The notes: generated from the sequence alone by a model not told the origin. Counted from the first letter of the stretch, positions 1 to 64,000 are shown. The stretch: 64,000 bases of DNA from an uncultured Verrucomicrobiae bacterium (GCA_963726745.1 CAVSDR010000004.1:1-64000), one strand, 5' to 3'. A program made the numbers and translations.

Positions 1-2929
1 CCTCCTTTCGATTGGCCTAACCACTGCCCACACCCAGACGGTCACCAATCCCAGTTTCGAAGCCGACGCCGTGCCGCCGGGCAATGGCGAAGGCACCCCG
101 AGCGGCTGGAGCAGCACCAGCGCGGGGATCAACGACTCCGCCGGTCCTTACGCTGAGAACGGGGCCATTCCTGACGGCGAAAAAGTAGCCTTCATCTTCG
201 GCGTCGGATCGCTCCGCCAGACCGTGGGTGGCTTCGTCGTGGGGCGGCAATATCGGCTGCGCTATTTCGAGAACGCGCGCACTGGCCCCGCGCAAGGCCT
301 GGAAGTTCGCGTGGGTGGCAACTTGCTCGACAGTCACACGGTCGCGGCGGTGGGCGGGACGAATCCCTACACGCTTCGCTTCACCAATGCCTTTACCGCG
401 TCCGCCACGAGCCTCGAGATTGCTTTCAATACCACAGCATTTAACGCCATTTTGCTGCTCGACGGCGTGGCGGTCGAGCTGATCACGGTCGAGGGCTCCA
501 GCACCTTTCGACCGCTGCCCGACCTGCCGTTCGGACGCACGGAGCATACGAGCACCCTGCTGCCGAACGGGACGGTCCTGGTGGCTGGTGGCAATCCCGA
601 GCAGGTCGCCGGGCAGGGACTTTGGACCAATGATTGCCGCCTTTACAATCCGGCGACCAACTCGTGGAGCGCGACGGATTCGATGAAATACGGCCGCCGG
701 GGCCACACCGCCACGGTCCTGGAAGGACCCCAGGATTTCAGACCGTTCTCCGACCCGGGCGCGGTCATCACGAAGAAGGTCATGGTCGTGGGAGGAAAAG
801 GGGACGTGCCTGCCGGCTCAATCTACTTGAAGCGCACCGAGGTCTACGAAACGGCAACCGGGAAATGGGATGCGCAGCCCTGTTCCACCTCGCCCGCGGC
901 GCGGGATTCGGTCTACCAGCATTTCGGGCACACGGCCACGGCAATTCTGGAGCCGGATCTATTTGGAGGACCTGCCGTGGCCTACAGACTTTTGGTCTGG
1001 GGAGGCTATTACGATCAAAGCAGTAACAATCTCCGGCAGGGAGAGACTTATTCCCTGAACAACAACAGTTGGCGGGCGACCGACATTCAGGTGAATCCGC
1101 AGAACCCCTATCCGCCCGAACGAACCGCAGCGACGCCTCTTTCGAATCAGCGTGTGCTTTTCATGGGGGGAACAACCAATGGAGGCTCCACCCCGGTCAC
1201 GACCTCCTACATCTACAACGCCGCCAGCGGTGTGACCTCGAACCGTTGGACACTCACCGGCCCGCTCGCCGAAGCGCGGCTGGGACATACCGCCACGACC
1301 CTGCTCAATGGCGATGTCCTGATCGTGGGCGGCTCCGGCTCCGCCGGCACCTTGCTCGGCACGGCGGAACGCTACAGCGACGGCCCGCAAACCTGGGCCT
1401 CCACTGGCATCCCCGGCTTCGGCTGGACGGCGCAATATTTCCCCGATGCAGGCAATGGCACCCATCTCGTCGGCAATCCGATGGATACGCGCACGGATTT
1501 GACCATCGACTTCAACACCGGCTCCGGCTGGCCCGTCAACGCGGGTCCCCTCCCGAGCCAGCAAAACTTCAGCGTCCGCTGGACCGGCCAGCTCACCGCC
1601 CCGGTCTCCGGCACCTATACGTTTTACACAACGTCGGACGACGGCGTGCGGCTCCGGGTGAACAACCAATTACTGGTCGATAACTGGACCGACCATGCGC
1701 CGATCGAGAACAGCGGCACGATCGCTCTGACCGCCGGGCAGGTCGTTCCGGTGGTGCTGGAGTACTACCAGGCTGCAGCCGGCGGCGTCATTAAGCTGGA
1801 ATACTCCTCCGCTGCCGGGGTTGGGCGACAGGTCGTTCCCGCCGCCCAGCTGCGCACGCATTTTATTCCGCGTCAGAATCACACGGCCACGCTGCTCGCC
1901 GCCGGCAAGGTGCTGGTGATCGGCGGACGAGATGGTAGCGGAGCGCCTCTGGCCAGCGCCCAACTTTACGACCCCGCGACCGGCTTCTGGACCAACACGA
2001 GCTCGCTGAACACGGCGCGCTACGGCCATACCGCTACCCTCCTGGCTGACGGCCGGGTGCTTGTCGTTGGCGGTCGCACGTCGGATTCGGCGGAGCCCCT
2101 CCGCAGCGCAGAGATCTACGGCGCCCAGAACGCGGACATCGTCATTGAACGTCCCGTCAATGCGGCCATCGCCAATGGCGCAACGCATGATCTCGGCTTC
2201 ACCGCCGACACCATTTCGGGCAGCTTCCTTATCCGCAACCCCGGCCCGAAGCCGCTGGGCGCACTGAGCGTGAGCGTCAGCGGCGCGAATGCAGCCGACT
2301 TCGTTATCCTCCAACAGCCAGCCAGCGAAGCAGCCCCCGGTAGCGGCACGCAATTTGTCGTGCGCTTTGCCTCCGCCGGCTTGGGACCGAAGACCGCCAC
2401 GATCTCGATCGCAAACAACAGCGATCCTTCGCTCCTGAAATCGCCCTATAACATCACCCTAACCGCCCATCGCCTTTCGGACACGACCGACAGCGACGGC
2501 GACGGCATCAGCGATGCGCAGGAATGGCGCATGCGCTCGTTAGGCTTCAACTGGCAGGTGCGGCAACCTGGACTGGCGGCAAACTACTTCGCCACTGCGG
2601 GAGCTAACGGCCTTTACAATCAAACCCAATACAATGCCAACTACACGGCGGGCCAGAACGCCGTGATTAACTCACCGAACAGCTACAACCTTTATACGTT
2701 AAATCAGGTCCAGCTTCTCAATGTCGACCGGCCCTTATTGGTGCGAGACGCCAACGGCAAGTTCAAGCTCACCATGGGCGTGAAGAAAGCGAACGCGGCG
2801 AACCAGCCTTACACCGACTTCCCAATGAATCAGGCCGGTATGACCACGGTGATCAATGCCCAGGGCAAACTGGAGTTTGTTTTCCCCTCGACAAACAACG
2901 CCGCCTTCTTCCGGGTGGAGGCGCAATAG
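1..2929 (+). CDS. Secreted kelch-repeat beta-propeller protein with inserted PA14 domain, Ig-like domain and C-terminal FFRVE tail (5' partial)
   Basis: The frame is open from base 2 (LLSIGLTTAHTQTVTNPSFEAD...). It has repeated R-x-[GH]-HTATLL-x-G-x-VLV-x-GG kelch motifs, a PA14 motif (FSVRWTGQL...YTFYTTSDDGVRL) and the ending NNAAFFRVEAQ. Confidence 0.85.
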   Translation, partial: LLSIGLTTAHTQTVTNPSFEADAVPPGNGEGTPSGWSSTSAGINDSAGPYAENGAIPDGEKVAFIFGVGSLRQTVGGFVVGRQYRLRYFENARTGPAQGLEVRVGGNLLDSHTVAAVGGTNPYTLRFTNAFTASATSLEIAFNTTAFNAILLLDGVAVELITVEGSSTFRPLPDLPFGRTEHTSTLLPNGTVLVAGGNPEQVAGQGLWTNDCRLYNPATNSWSATDSMKYGRRGHTATVLEGPQDFRPFSDPGAVITKKVMVVGGKGDVPAGSIYLKRTEVYETATGKWDAQPCSTSPAARDSVYQHFGHTATAILEPDLFGGPAVAYRLLVWGGYYDQSSNNLRQGETYSLNNNSWRATDIQVNPQNPYPPERTAATPLSNQRVLFMGGTTNGGSTPVTTSYIYNAASGVTSNRWTLTGPLAEARLGHTATTLLNGDVLIVGGSGSAGTLLGTAERYSDGPQTWASTGIPGFGWTAQYFPDAGNGTHLVGNPMDTRTDLTIDFNTGSGWPVNAGPLPSQQNFSVRWTGQLTAPVSGTYTFYTTSDDGVRLRVNNQLLVDNWTDHAPIENSGTIALTAGQVVPVVLEYYQAAAGGVIKLEYSSAAGVGRQVVPAAQLRTHFIPRQNHTATLLAAGKVLVIGGRDGSGAPLASAQLYDPATGFWTNTSSLNTARYGHTATLLADGRVLVVGGRTSDSAEPLRSAEIYGAQNADIVIERPVNAAIANGATHDLGFTADTISGSFLIRNPGPKPLGALSVSVSGANAADFVILQQPASEAAPGSGTQFVVRFASAGLGPKTATISIANNSDPSLLKSPYNITLTAHRLSDTTDSDGDGISDAQEWRMRSLGFNWQVRQPGLAANYFATAGANGLYNQTQYNANYTAGQNAVINSPNSYNLYTLNQVQLLNVDRPLLVRDANGKFKLTMGVKKANAANQPYTDFPMNQAGMTTVINAQGKLEFVFPSTNNAAFFRVEAQ

Positions 2930-3078
2930 CGACCCCTAGGACTCGAATCATTCGCGGAGCAAATGCCGCTAAAAGCGGGGAGATCGAATGAGAGACCACG
3001 AAGCCAGAAAGGAAGACGTCTCCTTTTCTGGCTTTCTGGTTTCCAAATTCCTCCCTCTTCCGATTCGCCCGTTTCGGT

Positions 3079-5996: not shown

Positions 5997-6449
5997 ATGC
6001 CTAACGAGGATGCGCACTACTTCGTGGTCGACGGCCGGCGCTGGCGCAAGACCGATCCGCACATTCCCGAGAATCTGCGCGCCGAGTTGGTGAAAGAATT
6101 GATGGCCGCCCGTCGCGTCCAGGATCGGCCGCGGGTGCAGGACGCAAAGGTGGCGCTCGGCGAGCGCGGAGAAAAGTGGTGGCAAAAGACGTCCGAGGAA
6201 GGAAACCGGAAACGTCTGCGCGCCGCCATCCGCGCTCTCCTGCGCGCGCGACCGGCCGCTTCCTCGATCTGCCCGTCCGATGCGGCGCGCATCGCCGGCG
6301 GTTTGCATTGGCGCGCCCTGCTGCCCCAGGCCCGCGAAGCAGCGCGCGCGGCCGCCCACGCCGAAGAATTGGTCATTACCCAGCGAGGCGAAGAGATCGA
6401 TCCCACGGCCGACTGGCGCGGCCCCGTCCGCCTTCGCCTTCCGCGCTAG
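5997..6449 (+). CDS. DUF3253-like domain protein
   Basis: VVDGRRWRKTDP N-terminus and SICPSDAAR...ITQRG...GPVRLRL C-terminus. Confidence 0.75.
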   Translation: MPNEDAHYFVVDGRRWRKTDPHIPENLRAELVKELMAARRVQDRPRVQDAKVALGERGEKWWQKTSEEGNRKRLRAAIRALLRARPAASSICPSDAARIAGGLHWRALLPQAREAARAAAHAEELVITQRGEEIDPTADWRGPVRLRLPR

Positions 6450-8450: not shown

Positions 8451-8819
8451 CTAATCGGCTAACGAGGGAAGAAACTCTTCCCGGACGATCTTGCCATCCT
8501 TTACCGTGTAAACACCGACCTCGGACATCTGGAACCGCTTTTGCGATTCTTTGTCGGTAACGTCGATGTCGTATTGAACCACAAAACGATCATGGGCCAC
8601 GAACGGTTCGCTGACCTTAAAATCGTGCACTTCCATCGCACTGATCCACCAATCCGCTTTCCCGCGAATCGCTTCAATCCCCCGCTTTTCAGGAGAGCCG
8701 TCCCTTCCGTGCGCCTCCACGCTGACGATGTCTGGCGAGTAGAGAGTATCCACCGCTTCGTGCCAGGCCTGCTTGCGGCAGAGTTCCACTACTTTCCGCG
8801 CAACTTCTTCGGTTTTCAT
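8451..8819 (-). CDS. SnoaL/NTF2-like protein
   Basis: MKTEEVARKVVELCR...LYSPDIVSVE...EVGVYTVKDGKIVREEF. Confidence 0.85.
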   Translation of the reverse strand: MKTEEVARKVVELCRKQAWHEAVDTLYSPDIVSVEAHGRDGSPEKRGIEAIRGKADWWISAMEVHDFKVSEPFVAHDRFVVQYDIDVTDKESQKRFQMSEVGVYTVKDGKIVREEFLPSLAD

Positions 8820-12133: not shown

Positions 12134-13591
12134 TCACGGCGTCACTTTCGCGAGCGCTTCCATCTGCCAGTGGAGGTACTCGGGTTTGCCGTCCTTACTG
12201 CGCAGAACGAGGAATTCCGTCGCCTCCTCGCTTCCCGGCAGGTTGTAGGCAAAACGATCGCGGCCGATCTTTCGCACCGGCGTCTCGATCTCCCAGCCTG
12301 GACCTTCGCCGACGGTGGTCGGATAGCTGGCTTTGCGATGCAGCTTTCCATCGCGGATGACCAGCTCGGTGCGGAGCAGGCCGTTGCGATAAACGCCCGC
12401 GACTTCTTCCATCTCGGCTAACGAGAGCGGCATTTCCTCGACCGGCGGCAAAGAAGGCTTAGGCGACAATTTCAGAAACATCTCCATCGCTTTCTCCGTC
12501 GTCTGATCCAGGATGAGCGCCGTTTTGTTCGTGATCGTGATGACCGCGAAACGTTCTTTCGGCGCGAGCACCATGAAGGCGCCGAATCCCGGGATGATCC
12601 CGCCGTGGAATGCGATCGGCACCCCGCGATGCTCGTGCATGAAGAAACCAAAGCCGTAGGTCGTGCCCGTCCAGTAGCCCTTCGGGTTATCGAACGACGG
12701 CGGCACTTCCGCTCGCGGCTTGGTCAGCGTCGCGAAGAGCGTCGGCGCGAGCACTTGTTTGCCGTCGATCTTGCCGCCGTTCATGAGCGCGAGCGCAAAC
12801 CGCCCGAGGTCGCCCGCCGTGGTGAAATAAAATCCCGCCGGCCAGTCACCCACGTTGTTCGCCACCGGCCGCACCACCGTCGGCTTCGCTTTGCCTTCGG
12901 CGTCGTGCCCCTGCGCATGCGGGTAAGTCATGGCCGTGGTCGGGCGAATGAAGGTGTGCGTCATCCCCAGCGGCGCGAACAACCGCTCCTGCATCACATC
13001 CGCGAATGGCTTCCCGCTCAGTTGCTCGATCGCGTAACCGGCCAGGATGTAACCCGCGTTCGAGTAGGAAAAAACGCGGCCCGGTTCGGTAAAGAAATAA
13101 TCTTCGTCGCGATAGGCGCGCACCTCCGCGGCCAGCGCACTCTCTTCCTGCGCGCAACAAATGCGCGCGAAGGAGATCAGCCCCGCCGAATGACTGAGCA
13201 ACTGCTCAAACGGCAACCGCGAAAGCCGCGGCGCCAATCCCGGCGCCGCCTTCTCGAGCGGCGCATCCGTCGCAATCTTGTGCTCCTCGAGAAGCGCAAG
13301 CAGCACCGACGCCGTCAGCATCTTCCCGATCGACCCCGACCGAAAAAGCATCCCCGCCGTCACCGGCGCGCCGCTCTCGACATCCGCCACGCCGAAGCCC
13401 TGCTCATAGATCACGCGGTCCCCGCTCACGATCGCGACCACCGCGCCGGGCGTGTTCTTTTCCTGCAACTCTGCCCGGACCACCTCCTCCAGCTCGCGGA
13501 AATCACGCCCGGCGGCGAAAGCGTTTCGCTCCACCCCAAGCATGAAACCAAGGAGCGCGACCAACCGAAGCAGATGCCAGTGCTTCTTCAT
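12134..13591 (-). CDS. Serine hydrolase, beta-lactamase class C-like
   Basis: Signal peptide with SxxK (SIGK), LLSHSAG, YSN and HGG motifs. Confidence 0.9.
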   Translation of the reverse strand: MKKHWHLLRLVALLGFMLGVERNAFAAGRDFRELEEVVRAELQEKNTPGAVVAIVSGDRVIYEQGFGVADVESGAPVTAGMLFRSGSIGKMLTASVLLALLEEHKIATDAPLEKAAPGLAPRLSRLPFEQLLSHSAGLISFARICCAQEESALAAEVRAYRDEDYFFTEPGRVFSYSNAGYILAGYAIEQLSGKPFADVMQERLFAPLGMTHTFIRPTTAMTYPHAQGHDAEGKAKPTVVRPVANNVGDWPAGFYFTTAGDLGRFALALMNGGKIDGKQVLAPTLFATLTKPRAEVPPSFDNPKGYWTGTTYGFGFFMHEHRGVPIAFHGGIIPGFGAFMVLAPKERFAVITITNKTALILDQTTEKAMEMFLKLSPKPSLPPVEEMPLSLAEMEEVAGVYRNGLLRTELVIRDGKLHRKASYPTTVGEGPGWEIETPVRKIGRDRFAYNLPGSEEATEFLVLRSKDGKPEYLHWQMEALAKVTP

Positions 13592-17229: not shown

Positions 17230-17907
17230 TCATCGTTCCGCGGGCGGGCTGGCGGTTCGCTCCGGGTGAAAGAAGGCCGAGAAGGAATCCGCGTCCGTGC
17301 TCGCTGGCGCGCGCGGGATCCGCGCAGTCATGCGTCCCGCAGCGGCGCCCCAACCGCCCACCTTTTGCGCCTGCGCTTCTCGCTCGAGCCGCGCCAGCTT
17401 TTCTTGCTCCCGCTCCGGCGAGGCCAGGCCCACGGGAGCCGCCTGCGCGCCATAGACGCGGGCCAGACCATTGGCCACGAGCAGCTCCGCGAGGTCGCCT
17501 TCGCGCGTTTCCACGAAAGCGAAAAAGCGGGGCAACGCGCTCCGGCCCCGCGCGTCCTGCAGGCAGGTGCGAACGGTGAACGGCGTCGCCAGTTTCTCCG
17601 CGGCGAAGCGCTCCGCGAGCTCGCCCACCTTCAAGGCCTGCGGAACCGTGACGTGAAAATAGGCAGCCTGCTCGCCGACGCGCTCGGGAAAGCTGGCATC
17701 CGTCTCGGGCGCGTCCACCAGGTAAAGCCGAAAGATGTATTCCTTCCCACCGGCGCGGACGTGGAAGCTGTCGCCATCGTTGGCCTTGTTAGGCAAGAGA
17801 CGGCAATCCTTCAAGGTGATCCATGGTCCGTGGGCCCAGGCCGCGCTGGCGGACAGCCAGAGGAAGAAGGACAACCACGCGCGCCGCAAATTTTTCCAGG
17901 ACAACAT
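17230..17907 (-). CDS. Secreted thermonuclease (SNase) family protein
   Basis: Signal peptide with DGDSF, RLYLVDAPE, LLVANGLARV and ...AQAQKVGGW motifs. Confidence 0.85.
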   Translation of the reverse strand: MLSWKNLRRAWLSFFLWLSASAAWAHGPWITLKDCRLLPNKANDGDSFHVRAGGKEYIFRLYLVDAPETDASFPERVGEQAAYFHVTVPQALKVGELAERFAAEKLATPFTVRTCLQDARGRSALPRFFAFVETREGDLAELLVANGLARVYGAQAAPVGLASPEREQEKLARLEREAQAQKVGGWGAAAGRMTARIPRAPASTDADSFSAFFHPERTASPPAER

Positions 17908-17914
17908 CGAAGAT

Positions 17915-19177
17915 TTAGTCAGCCAGTTCTTCTGCGCCGACATTCCAGGATCGCGTTTTGCCATCGGCCAGGTCAAGGGAAACGAGGTGCTCGCCGGTGG
18001 CGGTAACGCCGTTCCTGGTCTGCTGGACCACGCCGTAAAGCAGCAGGTGCTGCGGCGTCTGGTAGCGGTGGCGCAGCTCGTGGAACGGCAGCTTGGCCAT
18101 CCACTGCGGCTGCAAATCATTCGTTAGGCGAGTGAGCGCCAGCCGGCCGTCCTCGTCCAGGCGGGTGCGGTGGAGCACGAGGAAACCGTCGGGATCCTGC
18201 ACGCCCATGACTTGCCTGGTTCCCTGCTGGACCAGCAAGCCAGCCTCAAGAAACTCCGGCGCGCCGGGAATGCGCGCGAGGTCGAAGAGCCGGTCGTGCG
18301 TCCCTTCGGAGAACTCTCGCGTCTTCCCGAGCCGCGCGCTCCAGAAGGTCCGCCGCGCCCGCGAGCTTTCGTAGAAGACGCTGTCAGCCTTTGAGCCCGG
18401 CTCCCCCGTGGCCAGCTTGTCGCCAAACTCGTCGTTCGCCGCATCGGCCGCTTCCTTCTCACTGAAAAGCCCGAGCCAGCGCCCATCGAGCCGCATTTGC
18501 CTAACGAGGAAATCGCGCGTGTGATAGCCCCCGCTCCCTTTGGCCACGGCCTGGAGCTGTCGGAAATAATCGTCGCTCGGCGGCGTGTAGGGCTCGGCTT
18601 TGCCGTCGGCTCCGCCAATCCGGAAACGGCGCGCATCCGCCGCCGTCACCACCAGGCCGCGATCGAAAAGGTAGAAGTCGAGCTTCGACGGAAGCAAGCC
18701 GCGCAGGGCGGGATTCTCTCGCTCGATCGTGGCCCGGTCGGCCAGCTGGCGGCCGTCCGCCGCGGAGAGCGCGACCGGCCCGTCATGCAGGAAAAGCCAG
18801 ACGACGGCGCCCGCCTGTCCGAGAATGCGCGCCTCAGCCACGCGCCCGCCGGCGTCTTCCTTCACCGTGAGCAGACGCTTTTTCCAAAGTCGCGCCGCGC
18901 TCGCTGGATCATGCGCCTGCAGGTCGAAGTGATACGACGTTTCCGTGACCAGCTTCCCGAGCAGCCGCCGGCTGCCGCCGAGACTGCGGGTTCGTTGTTC
19001 CTCTTGCTTCAGGAGCAACCAAAGCCGCGGCTGGCTCTCGTGCTGCACCAGCGCGGGCGGACCTTCGCGCTCCGGCGCACTCACACTGCTCTGGCTGCAC
19101 GCGGCGAGCATGGCTGCCAGCAGGCCACCGATCCAGATGGTGCCGACTTTCCGGGTAACCATCCGCCGAGTCTCCAA
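17915..19177 (-). CDS. Lipoprotein, possibly PA2928-like
   Basis: Lipobox LAAC and FLEAGLL...DGFLVLH motif; the family call is from recollection only. Confidence 0.55.
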   Translation of the reverse strand: METRRMVTRKVGTIWIGGLLAAMLAACSQSSVSAPEREGPPALVQHESQPRLWLLLKQEEQRTRSLGGSRRLLGKLVTETSYHFDLQAHDPASAARLWKKRLLTVKEDAGGRVAEARILGQAGAVVWLFLHDGPVALSAADGRQLADRATIERENPALRGLLPSKLDFYLFDRGLVVTAADARRFRIGGADGKAEPYTPPSDDYFRQLQAVAKGSGGYHTRDFLVRQMRLDGRWLGLFSEKEAADAANDEFGDKLATGEPGSKADSVFYESSRARRTFWSARLGKTREFSEGTHDRLFDLARIPGAPEFLEAGLLVQQGTRQVMGVQDPDGFLVLHRTRLDEDGRLALTRLTNDLQPQWMAKLPFHELRHRYQTPQHLLLYGVVQQTRNGVTATGEHLVSLDLADGKTRSWNVGAEELAD

Positions 19178-21295: not shown

Positions 21296-21316
21296 CGCTC
21301 GTTAGGCAGCGCGCAC

Positions 21317-22448: not shown

Positions 22449-22476
22449 GGCGCTCGATCAACTGCTCGTTAGGGCT

Positions 22477-36560: not shown

Positions 36561-36573
36561 CGAACGCCGCCGC

Positions 36574-45435: not shown

Positions 45436-47852
45436 TCAGTGCGGAGGGCTTCGCTGGGTTGGATTTGGGTCGCGCGGCGGGCCGCGCACCCGCTGGTCGC
45501 GAGTGCGGCCAGCAACAAAAGAAAACTGGCGGCGCCGTAACTCCAGGGATCGCCTAACGAGACGCCAAACAACGAGGCCCGCAGGACGCGAGCCACGCCG
45601 GCGGCCCCGGCCAGGCCGAGCACCAGGCCGACGAAGACCGCGCGCATCCCCTGCCCCATTAACATCCCCACGACCTGCGCGCGCGTGGCCCCGAGAGCCA
45701 TCCGGATCCCGATCTCGCGCGTTCGCTGAGAGATACCGTGCGCCATTGTTCCATAGAGGCCGGCCGCGGCCAGAGTGAGCGCGACGAGCGAGAAAAAGCC
45801 GAGCAACCAGGCGCGCAGCCGCGCCTGCCAGACCGAGTCGGCAACTTCTTTGCCTAACGAGACAAAATTAAAGACGCCGACATCGGGCGCGATCGCAGCC
45901 AGTTCGCGCTGCACCGCGGGCGCGAGGCTCAGCGGGTCGACACCCGTTCGCGCGCGCACCAGGAAATGCGTCTGCTTCCAGGCGAGTTGCAGGCTCGGCT
46001 TGTAAAGATCGGGACCGGCGGCGCGTTCCAGCGCCTGGTGCCGCACGTCACCGACCACGCCCACGACCGTCATCCAATCAGGGCTCGGTCCGCCGGGCCG
46101 TCCGAGCTGCAAGCGTTTGCCAACGGCGTCGGCGTCCGGCCAAAGCGATTGCGCGAGGCGTTCGCTGATCACGCAGACGTGCGGTGCATCGAGCTTGTCG
46201 CGTTCATCGAAGACGCGGCCGCGCCGCACCGGGATGCGCAGCGCGCGGAAGTAATCCGGGCTGACCGTTTGAAAATTCGCCAGCGGATTGCGCGCTTGTT
46301 CGTCAGGTGATTGGCCATCAGCGGTGAAGTCGACGCGGTTCCAAGGACGCTGCGCGACAAAGGGTGGGCTGTTATTCGCCGCGGCCGCTTCCACGCCCGG
46401 CAACTGCGCGAGGTGCGCCAGAAGCTTCGCGAAACGATCAATTCGCGTCTGCGCGTTCTCCGTTTCGCGATAGGTCGGGTTGACCTCCATCAGCAAAACC
46501 TGGCGCGCGTCGAAGCCGGGATTGACCTCGTCGAGCTTCATCACGCTGCGCAGGACCAGACTTGCGCCGACCAGGAGAATCATCGAGACCGCGATCTGCG
46601 CGGCCATGAGCAGCTCGCGTGTCCGGCCGCCGGCGCCGGCGTGACCGCCGCCAGTCGCCTTTAAAGTTTCGGCAATGTCGACCTGCGTCGCGCGCCACGC
46701 GGGCAGCGAGCCGGCGGCGAGCGCCGCGAGGCAGGAAATCGCAACCGTGAAGGCGAGCACGGCCGGGTTCACGTCGATCGTGACCCAGAACGGCAGCTCG
46801 ACCGGAATGGCGCGCGCGAGGAATTCCACCAGCCAAAACGCGAGCACGATGCCGAGCGCACTGCCCGCAAGCGCCAGGACCGCGCTCTCGGTCAGAAGTT
46901 GCCTAACGAGTCGCAGGCGGCTCGCGCCCAGGGCCGCGCGCACGGAAAACTCCCGCTGCCGCGCAACAGCGCGCGCCAGCAGAAGCTGGCTGACATTGGC
47001 GCAGGCAATCAGCAGGACCCCGCCGCAAGCCGCGAGCAGGAAGACGAGCGACGAGCGCACATTGCCGACCGTCTGCTCGCGCAGACTAACGACTGCCGCG
47101 CCGACGTCCTTGTTCGTGTCCGCATGCTCGCCTCGCAAGCGTTCGGCGATCAGATTCATCTCCGCCTGTGCTTCCGGAATGCTCACGCCGGGCCGAAGGC
47201 GCGCGATCGCCTGGTCGATCCGCCAGGAACGGTCCGTGCCCTGATTGAAAAACGCGGCCATCGGCACCCAGAGGTCGCTTTGCAGCGGGAAACGAAAGCC
47301 CGCCGGCATCACGCCGACGATCGTGCGCGGGGTCCCGTCTAACGAGACTTCGCGCCCGACGATCGCGCGGTCGCCGCCGAAAGAGCGTTGCCAAAGGCGA
47401 TGGCTGATGAGGAGGACGCGCGGCGCATTCGGCGCGTCATCCGCCGCGGTCAGGTTGCGCCCGAGCAGCGGCTCGACGCCGAGGAGGCTGAAGAGGTTCG
47501 CGGTCGTGAAGGTCGTCTTGAGGGTCTCGGTGCTGCCGCCGGCGGATTGCAGGTTGCCGTTCCAGCGCAGATTGAAAAAGGCCGCGTCGCTGAAACTGCG
47601 CGCCTGCTCCTTCCAGTCCTTGAAGTCGAGATAACCGACCCCGAGATCGCTTCCGGAACGCAGATTGCGCGATTGCAGACTAACGAGTGCTTCTGGTTGC
47701 GCGTAGGGCAGTGGCCGGAGGAGAAATCCGTAGACCACGCCGAAGATCGCGGTCGTGGCGCCGATGCCGAGCGCGAGCGCGAGGATCGCCACCAAGGTCA
47801 CCCCGGGTTTCTTGAAGAGCTGGCGAAAGGCGAAGCGGAGGTCGTGCATCAT
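45432..47852 (-). CDS. ADOP-type duplicated ABC permease (5th)
   Basis: Same motifs; start and stop overlap with the neighbours. Confidence 0.93.
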
Positions 47853-50266
47853 TCAGCGCGCAAAGTTTCCATCGGGTTGACCCGCGCCGCGCGGCGCGCC
47901 GGAATCCAGCAGGCCGCGGCCGCGGCGCAGACCAGAACCAGAGTGACCGCGCCATAAATCAGCGGATCGTTCGCGCTCACGCCGAAGAGCACGCTGCGAA
48001 TCGCGCGGGACAAGGCGATCGCTCCGGCGAAACCGAGGAGCAGACCGAAGCCGAGCAAGCGCATGCCCTGCCGCAGCATCATCATGCGAATCTGCGCCGG
48101 TTGCGCGCCGAGGGCGAGGCGCACGCCGATTTCGCGCAAGCGCCGCAGGCCATTGAAGGCCATGACTCCATAGAGGCCCACGACCGCGAGCGTGAGCGCG
48201 AGCGCGGCGAAACAGACGAGCAGAAAACTGAGCAGCCGCGGCGTGGCCCACGTTTCCTCCACCCGCTCCTGCATCGTGCGGAACTCGAAGGCAGGTTGCG
48301 CGGGATCGAGCGAGGCCACGATTTCGCGCACCGGTTTCTCGAACGATTTCGGAGCCAGCGCAGTGCGGAGCAAAACGACGAGGCCGGTATTCGGTTGCTG
48401 CGCCATCGGGAGATAGGCCTGCGGCAAGACGGTCACTTCCTCGAAGCCGTAGACTTTCAGGTGCGGGACGATGCCGACGATGGTCCAAAATTCACGAGTG
48501 CCGTCTTTGCCGGTCAACATGCGGATGCGTTTCCCGAGCGCGTCCTGTCCGGGGAAATAGCGCTCCGCCATCAGTTGATCCACGATCATGACCAGCGGCG
48601 CATCCTTCGTGTCCGTTGCGGCAAACGGCCGGCCGCGGAGCAGCGGCGTCTTGAGCGCCTGGAAATATCCGGGCGTGACCACGTTCATTTCCGCCGAGGG
48701 CATCTGCCCGGGCGCTGGCTCCGGCGCGCCTTCGGGGACGAAGGAAGTTTGCCAGCCCGTCATCAACGGCGGCGTCGAGGCGAGCGCGACCTGTTCCACT
48801 CCGGGCAGCGCAGCGATCTTGTCGACTAAAGTCGTGGCAAAATTCAGCACCTTCCTGTCGTCCTCATACGCCGGCTGCGGCAGATCGACGCGCGCCGAAA
48901 GCAGGAGCTGCGGATCAAACCCGAGTCCGAGCGACTTGGCATTGGCGAAACTCTTCAAGACCAAACCCGCAGTGCTCAAAAGCACGAGCGTCAGCGCCAC
49001 CTCTGCGATCACGAGGAGATCACGCGAGCGCCGCGCGCCCGGCGCATCCGAGCTGCCGCGGCCGCCGGCTTTGAGCGCGAGTTGAATATCCGCGCGCGAA
49101 GTGTGCCAGGCCGGCCAGAGACCAAAGAGGACGCTGGTCAAAAGCGTGAGCGCCAGGCTGAAGAAAAGGACCCAGCCGCCTAACGGAATGTCTTGAAAGC
49201 GCGGCACGCCCGGCGGCGCCAGCGCGACCAGCAGATCGCGGCCCCACGCGGCCAGGCAAAGTCCGAGCGCGCCGCCGACGAGCGCGAGGACAAAGCTCTC
49301 GATGAGCAACTGACGAATGATTTGCCAGCGCGACGCGCCAACCGCCGCGCGCACGGCAAACTCACGCGCGCGGGCCGCGCCGCGGGCCGCGAGCAGATTG
49401 GCCAGGTTGGCGCAGGCGATGAGCAAAACGAGCGCAACCGCGCCTAACAAGAGCTGAAGACTGGCGCGATAATCGCCCACCTGGTTCTCCAGCAGCGGCG
49501 TCACGGTCACGCTCACGCCGGCATTGGAATCAGGATATTGTTTGGAGAGCCGCGCGGCGATTTGCTTGAGGTCGTTCAGCGCGCGCTCCTGCGTGACCCC
49601 CTCCTTCAACCGTCCCCAGGCGAAGAGGCCCGGATGATTGTCGCGCGTCTGCCAATTCGGACTCGCCGTCCGTCGCATGATGGGGAACCACACCTCCACC
49701 GTGCGCGGCGAAAACATCTGCGGCGGCATCACGCCGATGATGGTGTACGGCTGATTGCCGAAATTGACCACGCGCCCGAGCACGTTCGGATCGCGCGCAA
49801 AAACGCGCTGCCAAAGTCGATCGCTGATCACCGCGAGAAATCCGCCGCCGACCGTGTCTTCTTCCTCGGTGAAGACGCGGCCGAGTTGCGGCTCGAGCCC
49901 GATGACCTTGAAGAAATTAGCCGTCACGATGGCGCCGCTGACCTGCTCCGGTGCGCGCCCTTGCAATCCGCTCAGTCCGAACGATTCGCGCCGCGAGATC
50001 GCGAGTTCAGAGAAGCTGGTGTTGTCGCGTTTCCAATCGACGTAGTCCGGATACGAAACGGAGATCTGCGGCTGGTTCGAATCGCTTTCGGTCACGATCA
50101 TGAGCCGGTCCGCTTCCGGATAAGGCAACGGCCGGAGCAACACCGCGTAGATCACGCTGAAGATGGCGGTGTTCGCGCCGATGCCGAGGGCGAGCGTGAG
50201 CACGGCCACGATGGTGAAGCCGGGTGATTTCCGGAGTTGGCGAAAAGCGTAGCGGAGGTCGTTCAT
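47849..50266 (-). CDS. ADOP-type duplicated ABC permease (4th)
   Basis: Starts [11 protein letters not shown]; same motifs. Confidence 0.93.
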
Positions 50267-50291
50267 AGGAGTATTAATCTCTGATTGAAAT

Positions 50292-52704
50292 TCATTCTGC
50301 GCGCAGCGCGACGATCGGGTCGACTCGGGCAGCACGGCGCGCGGGCAACCAACTGGCGACGAGCGCAGCGAATGCGAGCAGCGCACTCACGCCCGCATAC
50401 ATTGCGGGATCGGTCGCCTGCACCTGGAAGAGAAGTCCGGTGAGCAGGCGGGAAGTCGCAAGCGCCCCGGCTATCCCGAGCGCCAGGCCGATGAGGAGAA
50501 GCTTCATCCCCTGCCCCACGACGAGCGCGCGGATATCACTGCGCTGCGCGCCGACTGCGAGGCGAATCCCGATTTCGCGCGAGCGACGGACAACGCTGTA
50601 AGCCAGCACGCCGGCGAGGCCGATCGTCGAAAGCAAAAGCGCGAGCCCCGCGAAGATAACCAGGAGCAGACTGAGGAAGCGCGAGCCGGCCAGCGTCTCC
50701 TGCACGCGCGCCGTCATCGGACGCACGTCATAGACCGGCTGCGCGGGATCGATCGCGGCGACGGCGGCGCAGACCGATCGCTCGAGCGCGGCCGGGTTGC
50801 CGGGCGTGCGGAGGAGCAGGACGAAATTCGTCCGCTCCACCTGCGCCTGCGAAAAATAAACGATCGGGAGCGAGCTGATCTGATCAAACCCGCGCAGCTT
50901 CATCCGCGCGACCACACCGATGATTTCAAACATGCGCCCGCTGCCGCTGTCATCCGGATCGATCCGCAAGCGGCGACCGATCGGATTCTCTCCGGGAAAG
51001 AACTTATCGGCGACGGATTGATCGACGATGACGACAGGTGGCGACGTGCCGGAATCGCGTCCATCAAAGACGCGCCCGCGCTGAAGCGTGCCTTGGAGCG
51101 TGACGAAGTAATCGCCGCGCACGATCTCGGTGTCGGCGGAGATTTCCTGGCCGGGCGGCGGCTCCGGCGCGCCTTCCGGCAGAATATTCGTCTGCCAACC
51201 GGCGAGCATCGGCGGGTTCGAGCTGAGCGCGGCATTCTCAACTCCGGGAAGTGCGCGCACGCGCTCGAGCAGCCGATCGGAAAATTGCACGACCTTTTCC
51301 TTGGTCGAGTAGACGCGAAACGGCAGGTCGAGCCGGGCGGTGAGCAATCCTTCCGGTTGGAAGCCTAACGAGAGCGCCTGGGCGCGCGCAAAACTCTTCA
51401 GCACTAAACCGGCAGCGCAAAGAAGCACGAGCGTGAGGGCGATTTCACCGATCACGAGCCAGTCGCGTGCGCGCCGCGAGGCAGGCGAGTCGGCGCTGCC
51501 GCGCGCGCCGGCATTCAAAGCCAACTGCGCATCAGTGCGCGCCGCGACACGGGCCGGCCAGAGGCCGAAGAGGAAGTTGGTGCAGAGCGCCAGGCCGAGC
51601 GTGAAAAGCAGCACCGGCGCGTCGAGACTGACGGAATCCAGCCGCGGAATACCCGCAGGACTGAGGGCGATGATCGCGTCGCGTCATCCAGAAGGCGATC
51701 AACAACCCGCCGGCGCTTCCGAGAAGGGCGAGGAGCAAACTTTCGCAAAGCAATTGCCTAACGAGCTGTCCGCGGCTCGCACCGAGCGCGGTGCGCACGG
51801 CAAATTCCCGGGCGCGCGCGGCGCCGCGCACCGCGAGCAGGTTGGCCAGATTGGCGCAGGCGATGAGCAGGACCAATCCGACCGCGGCCAGGAGCAGGAA
51901 AAGATTTTCGCGATAAGGCCCGACCTGATTTTCCAGGAGCGAGGTCACCGCGACGCCGACGTTCGTGTTCGTCTCGGGATATTTTTTCTCGAGCACCGTC
52001 GCGAGCGTGCGCATCTGCGCGCGGGCCTGCTCGAGCGTGACGCCGTTTTTCAAGCGACCAAAGGCGTAGAGGCCGGGATGATTTTCACGATTCCAACCCT
52101 CCGGCACGCGACGCATGAGCGGCACCCACACATCCGCTCCGCTTGGAAGCGACATCTGCGGCGGCATCACGCCGACCACTTCGAAGAGCTGGTTGTGCAG
52201 ATTGATCGAACGGCCGACGACATCGGGCGCGCGCTGAAAGGCGCGTTCCCACAGCGCGTCACTGAGCACGACCAGCGCCGGTCCGCCGCGCCGATCTTCC
52301 GCTTCGGTGAAGACGCGGCCGAGGCGCGGCGACGATCCGATGACGGAGAAAAAATTAGCCGACACGAACGCGCCCGAGACGCGCTCGGCCTCGCGACCCG
52401 CGATGCCGCTCAAGTTAAAAGACTCGCGCCGGCTAACGGCGAGATTTTCGAAGACCTTGTTGTCGCGCTGCCAATCGAGAAAATCGAACCACGAAATCGA
52501 GATCACCGGTTGCGCGGCATCCGACTCGGTCAGGTAAACGATGCGCTCCGCATGCGGAAACGGCAGCGGCCGCAGGAGGACCGCGTTGATCACGCTGAAG
52601 ATGGCGGTGTTCGCGCCAATCCCGAGCGCGAGCGTGAGAACCGCAACCAACGTAAAGCCGGGCGATTTGCGCAGTTGCCGAAAAGCGAAGCGGAGGTCGT
52701 TCAC
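50292..52704 (-). CDS. ADOP-type duplicated ABC permease (3rd; frameshift near 51688)
   Basis: ORFs 51532-52704 and 50292-51614 join through [15 protein letters not shown]. Confidence 0.88.
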
Positions 52705-53600
52705 GGCTGCTCGGCGGGTGGAGTTGGGACCGGTTCCGCCAGGGCGGCGGTCGGCTCGAGATAAATTTGGCCATGCGGCGCGTCGAAGGTGACGATGAAA
52801 CGGCGCAAAATTTCCATCCCGACAGATGGCGGCGCGCCGCCCGGACCCCAGACACGTTTGATCACGAAAGGTCCAATTTTCACCGAGGTGAAGACGCCGG
52901 AGTAGGCTTTGAAGTTCTCTCCCAGTCCGCCGCCGAGCGTGCTCGTGCGCACTTCTTCCGATTGCCTAACGACTTCATCGTTCACAGAGGATTCCGAGCC
53001 GGTGTCGATCCGCAGCTTGTGCGTCACCTTTTTTCCGGCGGGCACTTCGAGTTCCGCCTCGAGGAAAAGCCGACCGTTCTCCACGGAGAGAGGAATCGCG
53101 GCGCCGGAGCCGGTGTATTGGAAAGTGGCGGGATCGAAGACGCTGAAGCGCGCTGCCACCGGATCCATGCGGACGACGAACTTCTCGAACAGCTCCGCGC
53201 CGACCAATCCGCGGACGTTTTTCGGAATGGGAACGTTGCTCAGGTCGATGACCCAAGGCTCCGGCAGCTCGACCTTGAAGCCGTGCAAGCTCATCGTCTG
53301 CGGCGCGGTGATGGACTTGGCCACGGAACCTTTGCCCGTCCCGGTGACGGCGGTGGAGCTTTCCACTTTGAGTCCGAGCTCGTGCGCAAATTTGGGATCC
53401 AAGATGCTGTGCGGAGCACCGGTATCGACGAGAAAGAGCGCGGGCTCGGCGTCGTTGATGCGCGCTTCGACGAGCAGGAGCTGGCCATCGCGGCGGAAGG
53501 GAAATTCCGCCAACGGCTTCGACGGTTCCGCCCGGGTGAACGACGCGCCCGCAAGCGCCGTTATCACCAGCACAAAAGCAAAGCGGAGAGCGTTCATCAA
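52701..53600 (-). CDS. Secreted retropepsin-like aspartyl protease
   Basis: Signal peptide and two catalytic lobes (FLVDTGA...GLVG; IDTGS...SVG). Confidence 0.85.
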
Positions 53601-56042
53601 TTAATCCGCGCGGAGCGCCAGCATGGGATCGACTTGCGCGGCGCGGCGCGCGGGGATGAGGCAGGCCACGAGCGAGACGAAGCTCATAACCAGTGCGGTT
53701 CCGAGGAGCGTAGCGACGGGCAACGCTGGCACATCGAAGAGAACACTCTGCATCGCCCTTCCCGCCATCCACGCGCCGATCAATCCGAGGATGGTTCCGG
53801 CCGCGAGCAGGCGTAGACCTAACGAGAGGAATTGCGTGCCGACCTGTTTCCTTTGCGCACCCAGGGCCATGCGAATGCCGATTTCGCGTCGGCGTTGGGC
53901 GACGGCGTAACTGAGCACGCCGTAGGTTCCAATCGCCGCGAGCAGGAGCGCGACGCCGGCGAAGATTCCCGCAAGCAGTGCGGGCGAGCGCCGCGCGATC
54001 AGGCTGTCGGCCACGCGGGTTTCCATCGACTGGATATCGTCGATCGCCAGACGCGGATCAGTCGCGCGCACCAGACGACGCAGCGTCGCGGCAAACGCTT
54101 CCGGACGCTGGCTGGTGCGCACGACGACAAAGACGTTGGCGGCGTCGCGATCGATGAAAGGGAAATACACTGCACCCTGCCCCTGCGGTTCTGTGAGCTC
54201 CGCTTGTTTTACCGTGCCGACGACGCCGACAATGGTGGATAGTTTTGCCTTGTCGGAATCGCTGCCTTGGAACACGCGTTGACCGAGCGCGTCGCCGTGG
54301 GGCCAGTAACGCCGGGCGAAGTCTTCGTCCACCACACAGACCCGCTCCCCGCGGCGCGAATCCTCTGAGTTGAGGAACCGTCCTTCGCGCAACGGAATGC
54401 CGAGGGCACTGAAGTAATCGCCGGCGACGCCGTAGGAATAATGGCCGTGCAAGGATTCACCCGGCTGCGGCACATATCCTTTTGGTGTGACGGCGGCTTT
54501 TCCATTATCTCCGCTCAGCGGCACGTTCGTAATCGTCCCGGCCGCGGTGACTCCCGGTTGCTGGCCGATGGCGTCCAGCAAGCTATCGAGCACGGCCACG
54601 CGTTGGGGTGATTCAGCCGGATAGGCTCCCCACGGGAGGGTGAACTGGCCGGTGAGCACGTGATCGGCGCGAAAGCCGGGCGACACGGCCATCGCCTTTT
54701 TCAGGCTCAACCCGAGCAACGCCGCGCCGGCGAGCAAAACAAAAGCGAGCGCGATCTGTGCGATGATGAAGCCGTGGCGAAGACGCTGCGCGGCGCGGCT
54801 AACCGTGCCCGTGCGCGATTCCGATTGGAGTGCATTCGCCAGATGACTGTGCAGGTTGAACCAGGCGATCGGCAGCGCGATTACGACTCCGAGAAGAATG
54901 GCGCCGGCCAAGCCGATCACCGCGAGCCAGCCATCGAACACAATGTGTGCCCCTAACGGCAACCGATCCGCGCCGAGAACTTCGAGCAGGCCCATTCCCC
55001 ACGCCCCCACCGCCAGACCGAGGACTCCGCCGATCACGGTGAGGAGAACGGTCTCCACCATCACTTGCTGCACGACCTGCCTCCGGCTCGCGCCCAGCGA
55101 TTGGCGGATAGTCATTTCTTTCGCGCGCCCGCTCGCGCGGATGAGCAACAGGTTCACGAGGTTGACCGCGCCGATGAGCAGGAGGAACAACACGCCAGCC
55201 TGCATCAACCAGAGGGTCGGACGAATCGAGCGCACGTGATCCGCATGAAGTGAAACCACCGGCGAACGGAAGCCGGCCTCAGCCATTGCTTTCGCGTCAG
55301 GATTATCTTTCTCGACCGCGGCATTGTGCGCATCGATTTGGGATTGCGCCTGATCGATCGTCGCACCCGGTTTCAAGCGCGCGATCATGTGCGTCCCGCC
55401 GCCGCCGGAATGGCGCTGCTTCGGACCGCGTTGAGACAACTCGGAGGTGAGCGGTAGGAAAAGTCTCACTTCCGAGGAGAGGAAGCGAAAATCAGGAGGC
55501 AAGACGCCCACAATCTTTCTGGGCACTCCGTTCACCTGGATTTCCCGACCGAGAATTTTAGGGTCGGAATCGAGACGCTGGCGCCAATAGGCGTCAGTCA
55601 AAATGGCCTGGCGCATGTCCACCATCGCCGTCACGTCTGTGTCGTTGAAGCCCCGGCCCATCACCGGGCTGACGCCGAGCGTCGCGAAAAACTCCGGCGT
55701 GATCCGCATGACCTGCACCTGCTCGGTCGAACCTGCTTCGCCGACGAGTTCACTGTTGTCACGATAGATGGACAGGCTGGAGAAGGCCGGGATGTGGCCG
55801 CGCCGCTCGTAATAATTAGTGATCGACGAGCCATCGTTCTCGACGCCGGCTTTCGGGTAGGTGTTGTAGATCGTGACCAGGCGATCGGATTGCGGGAACG
55901 GAAGCGGCCGGAGCAGGATGGAATTGATGACCGCGAAGATGGCCAGGTTCGCGCCGAGGCAGAGCGCAATCGTGGCCAACGCGGTGAGGGTAAAAATGGG
56001 CGACTTGCGCAATTGGCGGAGGGCGAAGCGCAGGTCGTTCAT
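53601..56042 (-). CDS. ADOP-type duplicated ABC permease (2nd)
   Basis: Same architecture with more divergent motifs (LCLGANLAIF). Confidence 0.92.
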   Translation of the reverse strand: MNDLRFALRQLRKSPIFTLTALATIALCLGANLAIFAVINSILLRPLPFPQSDRLVTIYNTYPKAGVENDGSSITNYYERRGHIPAFSSLSIYRDNSELVGEAGSTEQVQVMRITPEFFATLGVSPVMGRGFNDTDVTAMVDMRQAILTDAYWRQRLDSDPKILGREIQVNGVPRKIVGVLPPDFRFLSSEVRLFLPLTSELSQRGPKQRHSGGGGTHMIARLKPGATIDQAQSQIDAHNAAVEKDNPDAKAMAEAGFRSPVVSLHADHVRSIRPTLWLMQAGVLFLLLIGAVNLVNLLLIRASGRAKEMTIRQSLGASRRQVVQQVMVETVLLTVIGGVLGLAVGAWGMGLLEVLGADRLPLGAHIVFDGWLAVIGLAGAILLGVVIALPIAWFNLHSHLANALQSESRTGTVSRAAQRLRHGFIIAQIALAFVLLAGAALLGLSLKKAMAVSPGFRADHVLTGQFTLPWGAYPAESPQRVAVLDSLLDAIGQQPGVTAAGTITNVPLSGDNGKAAVTPKGYVPQPGESLHGHYSYGVAGDYFSALGIPLREGRFLNSEDSRRGERVCVVDEDFARRYWPHGDALGQRVFQGSDSDKAKLSTIVGVVGTVKQAELTEPQGQGAVYFPFIDRDAANVFVVVRTSQRPEAFAATLRRLVRATDPRLAIDDIQSMETRVADSLIARRSPALLAGIFAGVALLLAAIGTYGVLSYAVAQRRREIGIRMALGAQRKQVGTQFLSLGLRLLAAGTILGLIGAWMAGRAMQSVLFDVPALPVATLLGTALVMSFVSLVACLIPARRAAQVDPMLALRAD

Positions 56043-56044
56043 GA

Positions 56045-61389: not shown

Positions 61390-61471
61390 GCGGGAACGAG
61401 CACACCAGCTTCGCCGCTCGTTAGCCAGCCGCATTTTGCTTCGGGCGCTTCTTTGCTACCTTCCTCGCGGA

Positions 61472-62762: not shown

Positions 62763-63170
62763 ATGCGTCTCTTTTGCCTCCTGCTCGTCGTCCTCGGCCT
62801 AACGAGTTGCGCCGTCACTTCCAGCCATCAGTTCGCGGCGCCCGGCGCGCAGTGGCAGACCCGCGCCGGCCAGCTCGCTTATCGCAGCCCCAAGATCTCG
62901 CTCATCGGCGACGTGCTCGTGCGTTTCTCCGCTGCCGGCGACATGGAGCTGCGCTTCAGTAAAGCCCCCGGCCTCACGCTCATGACCATTCGGCAGGATG
63001 CGAATTTCGGCAGCGCCGAAGGTCCCCTCGCCCGCGGGAAATGGGCCGGCCCGCTCACGACCGCGCCACCACGTCTGCGCGGCTGGTTTGCGCTCCGCGA
63101 AAAAATCCTCGCCGGCCAGGCCGCGGTGCAACTTCAAAGCGGCGGCGAAAGCTTCAATCTCCGCTTTTGA
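62763..63170 (+). CDS. Lipoprotein
   Basis: Lipobox LTSC. Confidence 0.75.
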   Translation: MRLFCLLLVVLGLTSCAVTSSHQFAAPGAQWQTRAGQLAYRSPKISLIGDVLVRFSAAGDMELRFSKAPGLTLMTIRQDANFGSAEGPLARGKWAGPLTTAPPRLRGWFALREKILAGQAAVQLQSGGESFNLRF

Positions 63171-63218
63171 CCCCTGCGGCGGGAGACGCGAGCTTCGCGC
63201 CTTCGCCCCGCTTTTCGC

Positions 63219-64000
63219 ATGCCGCTTCACACAACCATCAGCCGACTCGTCACCGAACGACGCGGCCTGGTCTGGCTGGGCGTTCTCCTAATCATCGGCG
63301 CCTCGCTCTTCATCCTCGTCACCCGGATGAAGCTCGACACCGAGGTGCTCAATCTCCTTCCCTCCGGCTTCGAATCGGTCGAAGGCCTGAAGATTTACAA
63401 TCGGGACTTTGCGCAGGTGCGCGAGCTCACCTTCGCGCTTGTCGCGCGCCCGGAGGATGCCGACAAGCTCGAGGAATTCGCCCCGCAATTTGCCGACGCT
63501 TTGCGCGCCCAGCCTTGGTGCACCCGTGTGCTCGCGGGCGCGCCGATTGAAACGCCCGAAGGCATTCGCGACTTGCAGGCCATCGCCGTGCCGCTCCTGC
63601 TCAATCTTGAGCCGGGGGCCTTCAAGGAAACGATCGCGCTGCTGGAGCCGGTGAAGATCCAGGAGCGGCTCGCGCGCTTGCACCAGGAGATCGAGGCTGG
63701 ATCGCCGCGCCCGCAGTTTGAGCTCTCGTTAGACCCGCTCGGGGTGATCGCGCCCGCGCTCAAGCCTTTCGCGAGCAACGCCGCGATCGAGGAGGACCAG
63801 CCGCTCACCTCTCCCGATCGCACCATGCGCGTCTTCCTCACGGTCACGAATCAACCCACGATCAGCGCCTTCGATTGCCAGGCCTTGATGGAACAAGTGA
63901 ACGCCTTTCGCGCCCGCGCGAGCGAGGGCTGGGAAGGCGGCCCGCTCGAGATCCTGGTCACCGGCCGCTCCGCTTACGTCGCGGAGATTTCGCTCAGCAT
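63219..64000 (+). CDS. MMPL family transporter (3' partial)
   Basis: MPLHTT... followed by a TM helix and KLDTEVLNLLP; the frame is open to the window end. Confidence 0.75.
   Translation, partial: MPLHTTISRLVTERRGLVWLGVLLIIGASLFILVTRMKLDTEVLNLLPSGFESVEGLKIYNRDFAQVRELTFALVARPEDADKLEEFAPQFADALRAQPWCTRVLAGAPIETPEGIRDLQAIAVPLLLNLEPGAFKETIALLEPVKIQERLARLHQEIEAGSPRPQFELSLDPLGVIAPALKPFASNAAIEEDQPLTSPDRTMRVFLTVTNQPTISAFDCQALMEQVNAFRARASEGWEGGPLEILVTGRSAYVAEISLS

Follow-up and report, generated by a model that had tools for sequence, protein, structure and literature searches.

Among the short words over-represented in bacterial chromosomes, Chi and the FtsK-orienting polar sequences (KOPS) are strongly co-oriented with replication and modestly enriched, and the highly iterated palindromes (HIP) of cyanobacteria, such as HIP1, have been linked to cognate methyltransferases. 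The uptake signal sequences (USS) of the Pasteurellaceae come in two types that differ at a few positions only. A recent preprint treats uptake sequences as a feature of the Pasteurellaceae and of the Neisseriaceae with their DNA uptake sequences (DUS), and places about half of all DUS and USS in terminators, often as inverted pairs (bioRxiv 10.1101/2025.10.24.684340); in a second preprint ComN is the predicted USS receptor of the Pasteurellaceae (bioRxiv 10.1101/2025.06.16.659825). Here we describe the highly iterated 10-mer GCCTAACGAG in a stretch of 64,000 nucleotides from an uncultured Verrucomicrobiae bacterium (GCA_963726745.1, CAVSDR010000004.1:1-64000). This stretch, the window in what follows, comprises positions 1-64000 of contig C4 in a genome of 3.41 Mb, 7 contigs and 64% G+C, designated G000.

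Its closest resemblance is to the uptake sequences of Neisseriaceae and Pasteurellaceae, in that it looks like a 'self-DNA' tag particular to a lineage. We tentatively read it as a signal that biases DNA uptake or transfer and that molecular drive maintains, and put the probability of this reading at roughly 0.45.

Abundance and anatomy of the word

With 820 perfect copies (445 on the plus and 375 on the minus strand), spread at even density over all 7 contigs, GCCTAACGAG is the commonest 10-mer of the genome, where a third-order Markov model predicts 6.1. Synonymous-codon shuffling in called genes left 10.3 ± 2.6 copies (20 replicates, maximum 16) in place of the 638 observed, and depending on the null, Markov or codon shuffle, the enrichment is 60- to 130-fold. 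The first-pass annotation of the window, in which the word was noticed, had set two checks beforehand, namely whether it exceeds a synonymous-codon-shuffled null and whether its enrichment reaches beyond the window; as evidenced by these counts, both are the case. Note that the gene calls, 2937 long open reading frames (ORFs) picked by the contrast of G+C content at third and second codon positions (GC3-GC2) and covering 88% of the genome, are crude, and that all frame counts are therefore approximate.

The core CTAACGA is present in 2025 copies versus 194 expected and accounts for 73% of all CTAAC in the genome. The logo of the word reads G-[C>G>A>T]-C-T-A-A-C-[G>>A]-A-[G>A,C], and no conservation extends beyond the ten positions. 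Variants with one mismatch at positions 1, 2, 8 or 10 are enriched genome-wide in their own right, while near-matches altered at core positions remain at or below chance, with 1 copy observed versus 11.6 expected for GCGTAACGAG, 3 versus 11.4 for GCCCAACGAG and 15 versus 86 for CTAACAT. Relative to genes, 106 of the 820 perfect copies are intergenic, in a genome that is 12% non-coding, while 279 lie in sense and 435 in antisense orientation. All four stop-free frames are used, and 332 copies fall into the frame TCG TTA GGC. As the flanks are unrelated the word is not a mobile repeat; a dispersed repeat of the repetitive extragenic palindrome or miniature inverted-repeat element (REP/MITE) type was ruled out, given that nothing is conserved past 10 bp and that 87% of the copies are inside genes.

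Both orientations occur in each 50 kb bin regardless of the sign of the GC skew, and the same slight excess on the plus strand is found on contigs of negative (345 of 633) and of positive skew (85 of 148). Core density is 25-35 per 50 kb on every contig, with the exception of a single island. Short spacings are under-represented with respect to an exponential distribution, gaps below 100 bp making up 2.2% of the spacings versus 5.8% expected and gaps below 300 bp 9.5% versus 16.5%. The longest word-free stretches comprise an O-antigen/polysaccharide cluster of 58% G+C (C7:60-85 kb), a cluster of minor pilins, an exosortase/exopolysaccharide region and genes whose products are secreted proteins of very large size, and genes in the lowest GC3 decile hold 0.33 cores per kb versus about 0.6 per kb in typical genes.

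Within the window we find 20 perfect copies (15 plus, 5 minus), whereas 100 dinucleotide-preserving shuffles averaged 0.08 and never exceeded 1. Another 22 copies have one mismatch; CTAAC is unbroken in all of them, the substitutions being confined to motif positions 1, 2, 8 or 10. Copies with two mismatches number 39, part of which are expected by chance, and the CTAACGA core occurs 42 times. The recount is identical to the first-pass annotation for the perfect copies and their strands, and the 22 variant positions listed there (8457 to 63725) are exactly the one-mismatch copies. Its further statements that CTAAC is invariant within tolerant flanks and that chance would provide well under one copy hold equally. 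The copies are as follows.

Perfect copies of GCCTAACGAG
2536..2545, minus strand, exact match
5999..6008, plus strand, exact match
18499..18508, plus strand, exact match
19428..19437, minus strand, exact match
20625..20634, plus strand, exact match
21298..21307, minus strand, exact match
24953..24962, plus strand, exact match
27971..27980, plus strand, exact match
28718..28727, minus strand, exact match
30290..30299, plus strand, antisense in gene 29630-31333 (minus strand), TCG TTA GGC (S-L-G) versus R/A-A-G in orthologues
32727..32736, plus strand, exact match
34250..34259, plus strand, exact match
39121..39130, plus strand, exact match
40296..40305, minus strand, exact match
45552..45561, plus strand, within the MacB/FtsX-type permease gene 45432-47852 (minus strand)
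45852..45861, plus strand, within the same permease gene
46901..46910, plus strand, within the same permease gene
51363..51372, plus strand, exact match
51756..51765, plus strand, exact match
62797..62806, plus strand, exact match

Copies with one mismatch
8457..8466, plus strand, GGCTAACGAG
12416..12425, plus strand, GGCTAACGAG
17785..17794, minus strand, GCCTAACAAG
18120..18129, minus strand, GCCTAACGAA
20886..20895, minus strand, GCCTAACAAG
22465..22474, minus strand, CCCTAACGAG
24088..24097, minus strand, GGCTAACGAG
24532..24541, plus strand, GCCTAACGAA
25945..25954, plus strand, GCCTAACAAG
30366..30375, minus strand, GCCTAACGAA, sense in gene 29630-31333 (minus strand), CTA ACG (L-T) versus V/A-T in orthologues
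30836..30845, minus strand, GCCTAACGAC, synonymous CCG to CCT in a conserved P-N-D of gene 29630-31333 (minus strand)
31627..31636, plus strand, GCCTAACAAG
36555..36564, plus strand, GCCTAACGAA
42098..42107, minus strand, CCCTAACGAG
43504..43513, minus strand, TCCTAACGAG
47337..47346, plus strand, GTCTAACGAG
47678..47687, plus strand, GACTAACGAG
49442..49451, plus strand, GCCTAACAAG
52964..52973, plus strand, GCCTAACGAC
53817..53826, plus strand, ACCTAACGAG
61417..61426, minus strand, GGCTAACGAG
63725..63734, minus strand, GTCTAACGAG

At 42964-58504, and again from 63219 onward, the window also contains a run of minus-strand ORFs, each about 810-845 amino acids long, plus one on the plus strand. 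One member of this run, ORF 45432-47852, was assigned by Pfam to the MacB/FtsX-type permeases and holds six CTAACGA cores.

Effect on codons and proteins

The usage of TTA in G000 is 3.1 per thousand codons, yet 433 of the 764 S-L-G tripeptides are spelled TCGTTAGGC, and 21% of all TTA codons in the genome sit inside the word. In the same manner, 146 of 236 P-N-E tripeptides are spelled CCTAACGAG.

For the window gene 29630-31333 we have aligned six alignable same-genus orthologues with 50-54% protein identity. (Unpublished genomes underlie the row of G001 in this alignment and, in the following section, the counts for G001, G008, G042, G046 and G053 as well as the third word in G046.) In the alignment of seven genomes a synonymous gain of the word is found in a conserved P-N-D, where CCG has become CCT, and further gains involve a change of residues, from D-R-A-G to N-S-L-G, from V/A-T to L-T and from S-P-A/S to S-L-G. 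Among the word-bearing columns, one has the word in four of the seven genomes, one in three, and one is common to G000 and G148, while two sites are private to G000. The differences from the orthologues amount to several bases per word site, and some sites recur across genomes despite a protein identity of only about 50%. The occurrence of both synonymous and residue-changing gains in orthologues implies a force at the level of DNA that can prevail over protein sequence; the word is conserved as DNA, not as protein.

Distribution among relatives and alternative words

All 24 same-genus genomes analyzed carry GCCTAACGAG, in 51-1549 copies, and 16 genomes from 15 other families of the order have 0-14. 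A scan of the family, with 121 genomes from 36 genera, yielded 6-1749 copies per genome and at least 100 in 63 of the 121; a control word, the pattern read backwards, reached up to about 60. The low-copy genomes were searched for other words in samples of 85-254 kb, and in G073, G071, G082 and G074 an unrelated second word with unrelated flanks, AAGATCGACA[A/T], was found to be dominant. Samples that represent it include the following.

L025-L034, from G073
L067-L072, from G082
L087-L092, from G074

Across the family AAGATCGACA is present in 8-4653 copies per genome, with the maximum in G066 (2.9 Mb). At a threshold of 200 copies, 33 of the 121 genomes have the first word only, 37 the second only, 3 have both and 48 neither. 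The three genomes with both words form one genus, and the sampled members of a genus agree in type. AAGATCGACA largely replaces GCCTAACGAG in other genera.

The samples of G079 and G063 did not reveal an over-represented word, and a 254 kb sample of the low-copy congener G002 contained no variant word but only a residual excess of GCCTAACGAG. In G068, CTAACCA occurs in addition to the first word. G028, from another family of the order (L103-L107, 100 kb), has a shorter word built on the CTAAC core, CTAAC[A/C][T/A]; in it CTAACAT was counted 36 times versus 2.0 expected and CTAACCA 22 times versus 3.5. Of the other out-of-family samples, G026 showed a faint trace, and no word of this kind was found in those of G027, G029, G030, G031, G038 and G039 (24 kb). 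G030 has moderately enriched words of its own, at about 7-12 copies per 100 kb.

G000 itself also carries a third word, [C/G]AWNKYGYYGGCTAAWT, with a logo that is identical across every frame class and between genes. Its core GGCTAAW occurs 1235 times in the genome, and GCTGGCTAA was counted 479 times versus 15.7 expected from the Markov model and 384 times in called genes versus 27.7 under codon shuffling. There is no positional linkage of the first and third word in G000, the profile being flat. Enrichment of the third word (GYYGGCTAAWT) is seen in three of the 121 family genomes, G000, G015 and G046. In the window its core occurs 16 times.

GGCTAAW cores, both strands, starts at 6796, 11025, 20178, 23047, 23715, 33362, 34187 and 34358
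GGCTAAW cores, continued, starts at 34657, 35643, 40093, 43141, 45385, 49916, 52354 and 56222

In the literature searched we found no paper that links GCCTAACGAG or AAGATCGACA to these bacteria; among the matches listed for the word forms, the contexts had nothing to do with genome signals of bacteria. A search on DNA uptake sequences and Verrucomicrobia returned nothing on the topic, as judged by title and beginning of the abstract, and in one on the second word and Verrucomicrobia or Udaeobacter the word was absent among the matches listed.

Other repeated DNA in the genome

Repeated DNA makes up 26.6 kb of the genome and stems from assembly overlap. The contig ends C1:1-12776 and C6:1022417-1035158 duplicate each other and are therefore attributed to such an overlap, and no multi-copy insertion sequence of at least 500 bp was found in G000. 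Six tandem arrays of the hexamer GCCAAC, of 17 to 39 units each, all lie outside the window; the array on C1 and the one at C6:1027519 fall within the duplicated overlap.

C1:5127-5258, GCCAAC array
C3:82903-83070, GCCAAC array
C3:731719-731832, GCCAAC array
C4:146754-146855, GCCAAC array
C6:313696-313929, GCCAAC array
C6:1027519-1027668, GCCAAC array

Origin of the enrichment

The most economical cause of this pattern would be biased uptake or transfer in combination with homologous recombination, because a drive of this type makes and restores sites whatever the mismatch and can fix mildly harmful changes of codons and residues. Fragments that bear the word would be preferred by some DNA-binding element of the machinery for transfer, which most likely belongs to a type IV pilus or competence apparatus. 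Homologous recombination of the preferred fragments would then spread new copies and restore decayed ones, the process referred to as molecular drive, and the word would build up in resident DNA to about one copy per 1.7 kb in spite of its cost in rare codons or amino acids. Fitting machinery is encoded in G000, with ComEC, DprA, a weak ComEA-like HHH domain, three secretins, 10 T2SSE-type (PilB/PilT-type) ATPases and about 11 prepilin-like ORFs.

A number of observations nevertheless weigh against an uptake signal, for which the case stands on resemblance of pattern. ComEC is intact in 33 of 34 genomes of the genus, including the low-copy G002, and likewise in all five further genomes checked, among them the word-free G063, G079, G027 and G031. 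The competence genes thus do not track the word, and with ComEC retained in word-free genomes the mere presence of the machinery does not discriminate. The best match in G000 to the family ComP_DUS (PF16732), that of the minor pilin by which Neisseriaceae read their DUS, scored 21.9 bits, below the cut-off of 27.3. Two pilins were considered as determinants and rejected: a minor pilin at C3:1034137-1034820 is patchy and present in both word types, and another at C3:432284-432952 is family-wide irrespective of type, at 38-63% identity in the one as in the other, while G145, though rich in the word, has a broken copy. An arrangement as inverted pairs or in terminators was not in excess in G000, where about 13-15% of copies are intergenic and the 44 pairs less than 100 bp apart comprise 20 inverted (10 plus-minus, 10 minus-plus) and 24 direct ones (15 minus-minus, 9 plus-plus). 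Finally, the family uses three unrelated words, of which one is sporadic; this exceeds the turnover of specificity known for DUS and USS, and would agree as well with some different type of mobile specificity module. With ComP and terminator pairs missing, no tracking gene found, the words unrelated and the third sporadic, both the preferential uptake or transfer of word-bearing DNA and the protein that would read the word are what we infer from the genomes.

A cluster of small pilin-like ORFs at C3:1032627-1034820 (L198) lies inside one of the longest word-free stretches. Two of its ORFs have a Pfam N_methyl match and one a pilin-like N-terminus, and full-length homologues of one member are scattered across distant genera, with none found in the same genus.

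In a wider sense it is quite possible, although we hold it at less than even odds, that a swappable DNA-specificity module exists in this family of uncultured bacteria and that interchangeable 'self-DNA' words steer gene exchange among them. This proposal is based on the two near-exclusive words, with up to one copy per 620 bp, and on the accessory third word in few genomes.

The explanation that competes best with an uptake signal, albeit an unlikely one, is that the word serves as the binding site of an abundant cytoplasmic chromosome protein with a role in nucleoid organisation, condensation, segregation or repair loading. Some 2000 sites would then be kept by weak selection for regular coverage, with co-evolution of protein and sites in each lineage. 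An even density on all contigs, the scarcity of short spacings and the use of both orientations would agree with this, as would the conservation of sites as DNA across deep relatives and the fact that nothing tested connects the word to uptake machinery. However, known arrays of parS, matS, Noc and SlmA sites are counted in tens and not in thousands, and selection at each of about 2000 sites would have to outweigh codon bias as well as protein sequence. A range of 51 to 1749 copies within one genus, together with word-free genomes, is also hard to fit to a core function, and no candidate protein was identified.

We regard it as improbable that the words are targets of modification or defence systems with interchangeable specificity (Type IIG/MmeI-like, BREX PglX-like, Type I or III), enriched through modification-linked repair or conversion bias as has been proposed for cyanobacterial HIP1. 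Such an origin would account for several unrelated and partly patchy words, for a third word in only 3 of 121 genomes and for the wholesale swap of the main words at the genus level, patchiness and swapping being typical of swappable specificity domains. A possible lead is that all three words have an A near the 3' end, like the sites recognised by methyltransferases of the MmeI family and of BREX. Four DNA methyltransferase genes were identified in G000 by a motif screen and subsequent Pfam analysis, however, and none of them tracks any word. The N6/N4 methyltransferase at C3:981068-982042 (L044) is a core gene, with 66-77% identity in 114 of the 121 family genomes irrespective of word type and including word-free ones. 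The HsdM and Eco57I-type genes are both truncated in G000. The Eco57I-type fragment is 99% identical to one in G015, which shares the third word, but G046 has the third word without a homologue of either gene. The C5 methyltransferase is absent from G015 and G002. None of the four was thus retained as a determinant, and the modification target that the first-pass annotation had offered as an option found no support among the methyltransferases tested. Restriction targets, moreover, are normally avoided and not enriched, the words are non-palindromic, and a single repair enzyme could hardly clear every kind of near-match at seven positions.

Note that in a subset of genomes the match to the N6/N4 methyltransferase is split near residue 115. 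The Eco57I-type fragment is located at a contig start (C6:1-1458, L219), as is its counterpart in G015. A decayed defence island at a contig end (C4:370168-376686, L220:10168-16685) contains a NERD nuclease, the truncated HsdM, a truncated DarT and DUF4379 zinc-finger ORFs. Public reads provided small shares only, namely short Logan contigs that trace to three runs within a single soil-metagenome study, and paralogues cross-map.

It is very improbable that a helicase-nuclease of the RecBCD/AddAB type reads the word as a Chi-like stop or 'self' signal, with no skew since breaks would arise mostly away from replication forks. Chi words are over-represented and differ unpredictably between lineages, and their density in E. 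coli is of an order similar to that seen here. The word nevertheless has no preferred orientation with respect to GC skew on any of the contigs, as the plus-strand shares given above illustrate, and a 60- to 130-fold enrichment that includes rare codons and residue changes is far above that of any known Chi. That the enrichment is an artefact of composition, of a protein motif, of a mobile element or of sequencing or assembly error is next to impossible, as dinucleotide shuffles, third-order Markov models and synonymous-codon shuffles all fail to reproduce it, copies with unrelated flanks occur in four frames and in intergenic DNA of a genome with only 26.6 kb of repeats, dozens of independent assemblies of 1 to 800 contigs show it, and the differences from orthologues span several bases at each site. 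The remaining probability falls to an explanation outside those considered.

Significance

Should the gene exchange steered by such words prove to be natural transformation, uptake sequences would for the first time be described outside the Proteobacteria, and their receptor would bear no relation to ComP. The signature here is in places a stronger one (4653 copies in 2.9 Mb) and comes with at least three words; its occurrence in a third lineage, unrelated to the other two, would constitute a new case of convergent evolution, and would hint that these uncultured bacteria frequently and selectively exchange DNA among themselves. The words distinguish resident from acquired DNA and could aid in assigning contigs to a lineage, and they supply bait of defined sequence in a search for the protein that reads them. 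That two unrelated words are used near-exclusively in one family also represents a natural experiment on the joint change of a recognition system and thousands of sites.

Comparison with known systems

Like Chi and KOPS, which are read by DNA-processing machines, GCCTAACGAG is a short, over-represented and non-palindromic word, but it lacks their polarity and is enriched 60- to 130-fold. With HIP1 it has in common that a hyper-abundant short word is imposed on coding sequence and that different lineages have different words; GCCTAACGAG, AAGATCGACA and GYYGGCTAAWT are, however, non-palindromic, and no tested methyltransferase tracks them. The first-pass annotation had set Chi, KOPS and HIP1 aside, and the absence of strand polarity and of a palindrome bears this out.

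The same annotation had drawn an analogy to DUS and USS, which is strongly supported with respect to pattern, through hyper-abundance, spread over genome and family, lineage-specific words, frames, override of coding sequence, depletion of core near-matches and spacing, and falls short with respect to machinery, in view of the missing ComP and of competence genes that do not track the word. It had missed the additional word of G000 and the unrelated one of sister genera. In the case of the DUS of Neisseriaceae, the differences are that the phylum, as given by the first-pass annotation, is another, that here a member of ComP_DUS is lacking (ComN was not searched for), that few copies are intergenic and none form inverted terminator pairs in excess, and that there is an alternative word, AAGATCGACA, without a shared core as well as a third word co-occurring in one genome. 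The likeness lies in a non-palindromic word of 10-12 letters that occurs about once per kb in both orientations without replication polarity, that is used across the family and varies by lineage about a conserved core (CTAAC in the present case, with three versions), and that is rarer in atypical or acquired DNA of a genome with a type IV pilus/competence gene set. From the Hin-type and Apl-type USS of Pasteurellaceae the present system differs in that its two main words are unrelated and that AT-rich flanking segments were not seen. It resembles them in its mostly intragenic location with preferred frames and constrained codons and amino acids, in a strict core within looser flanks, and in the division of a family into groups of genera that each rely on one of two word types.

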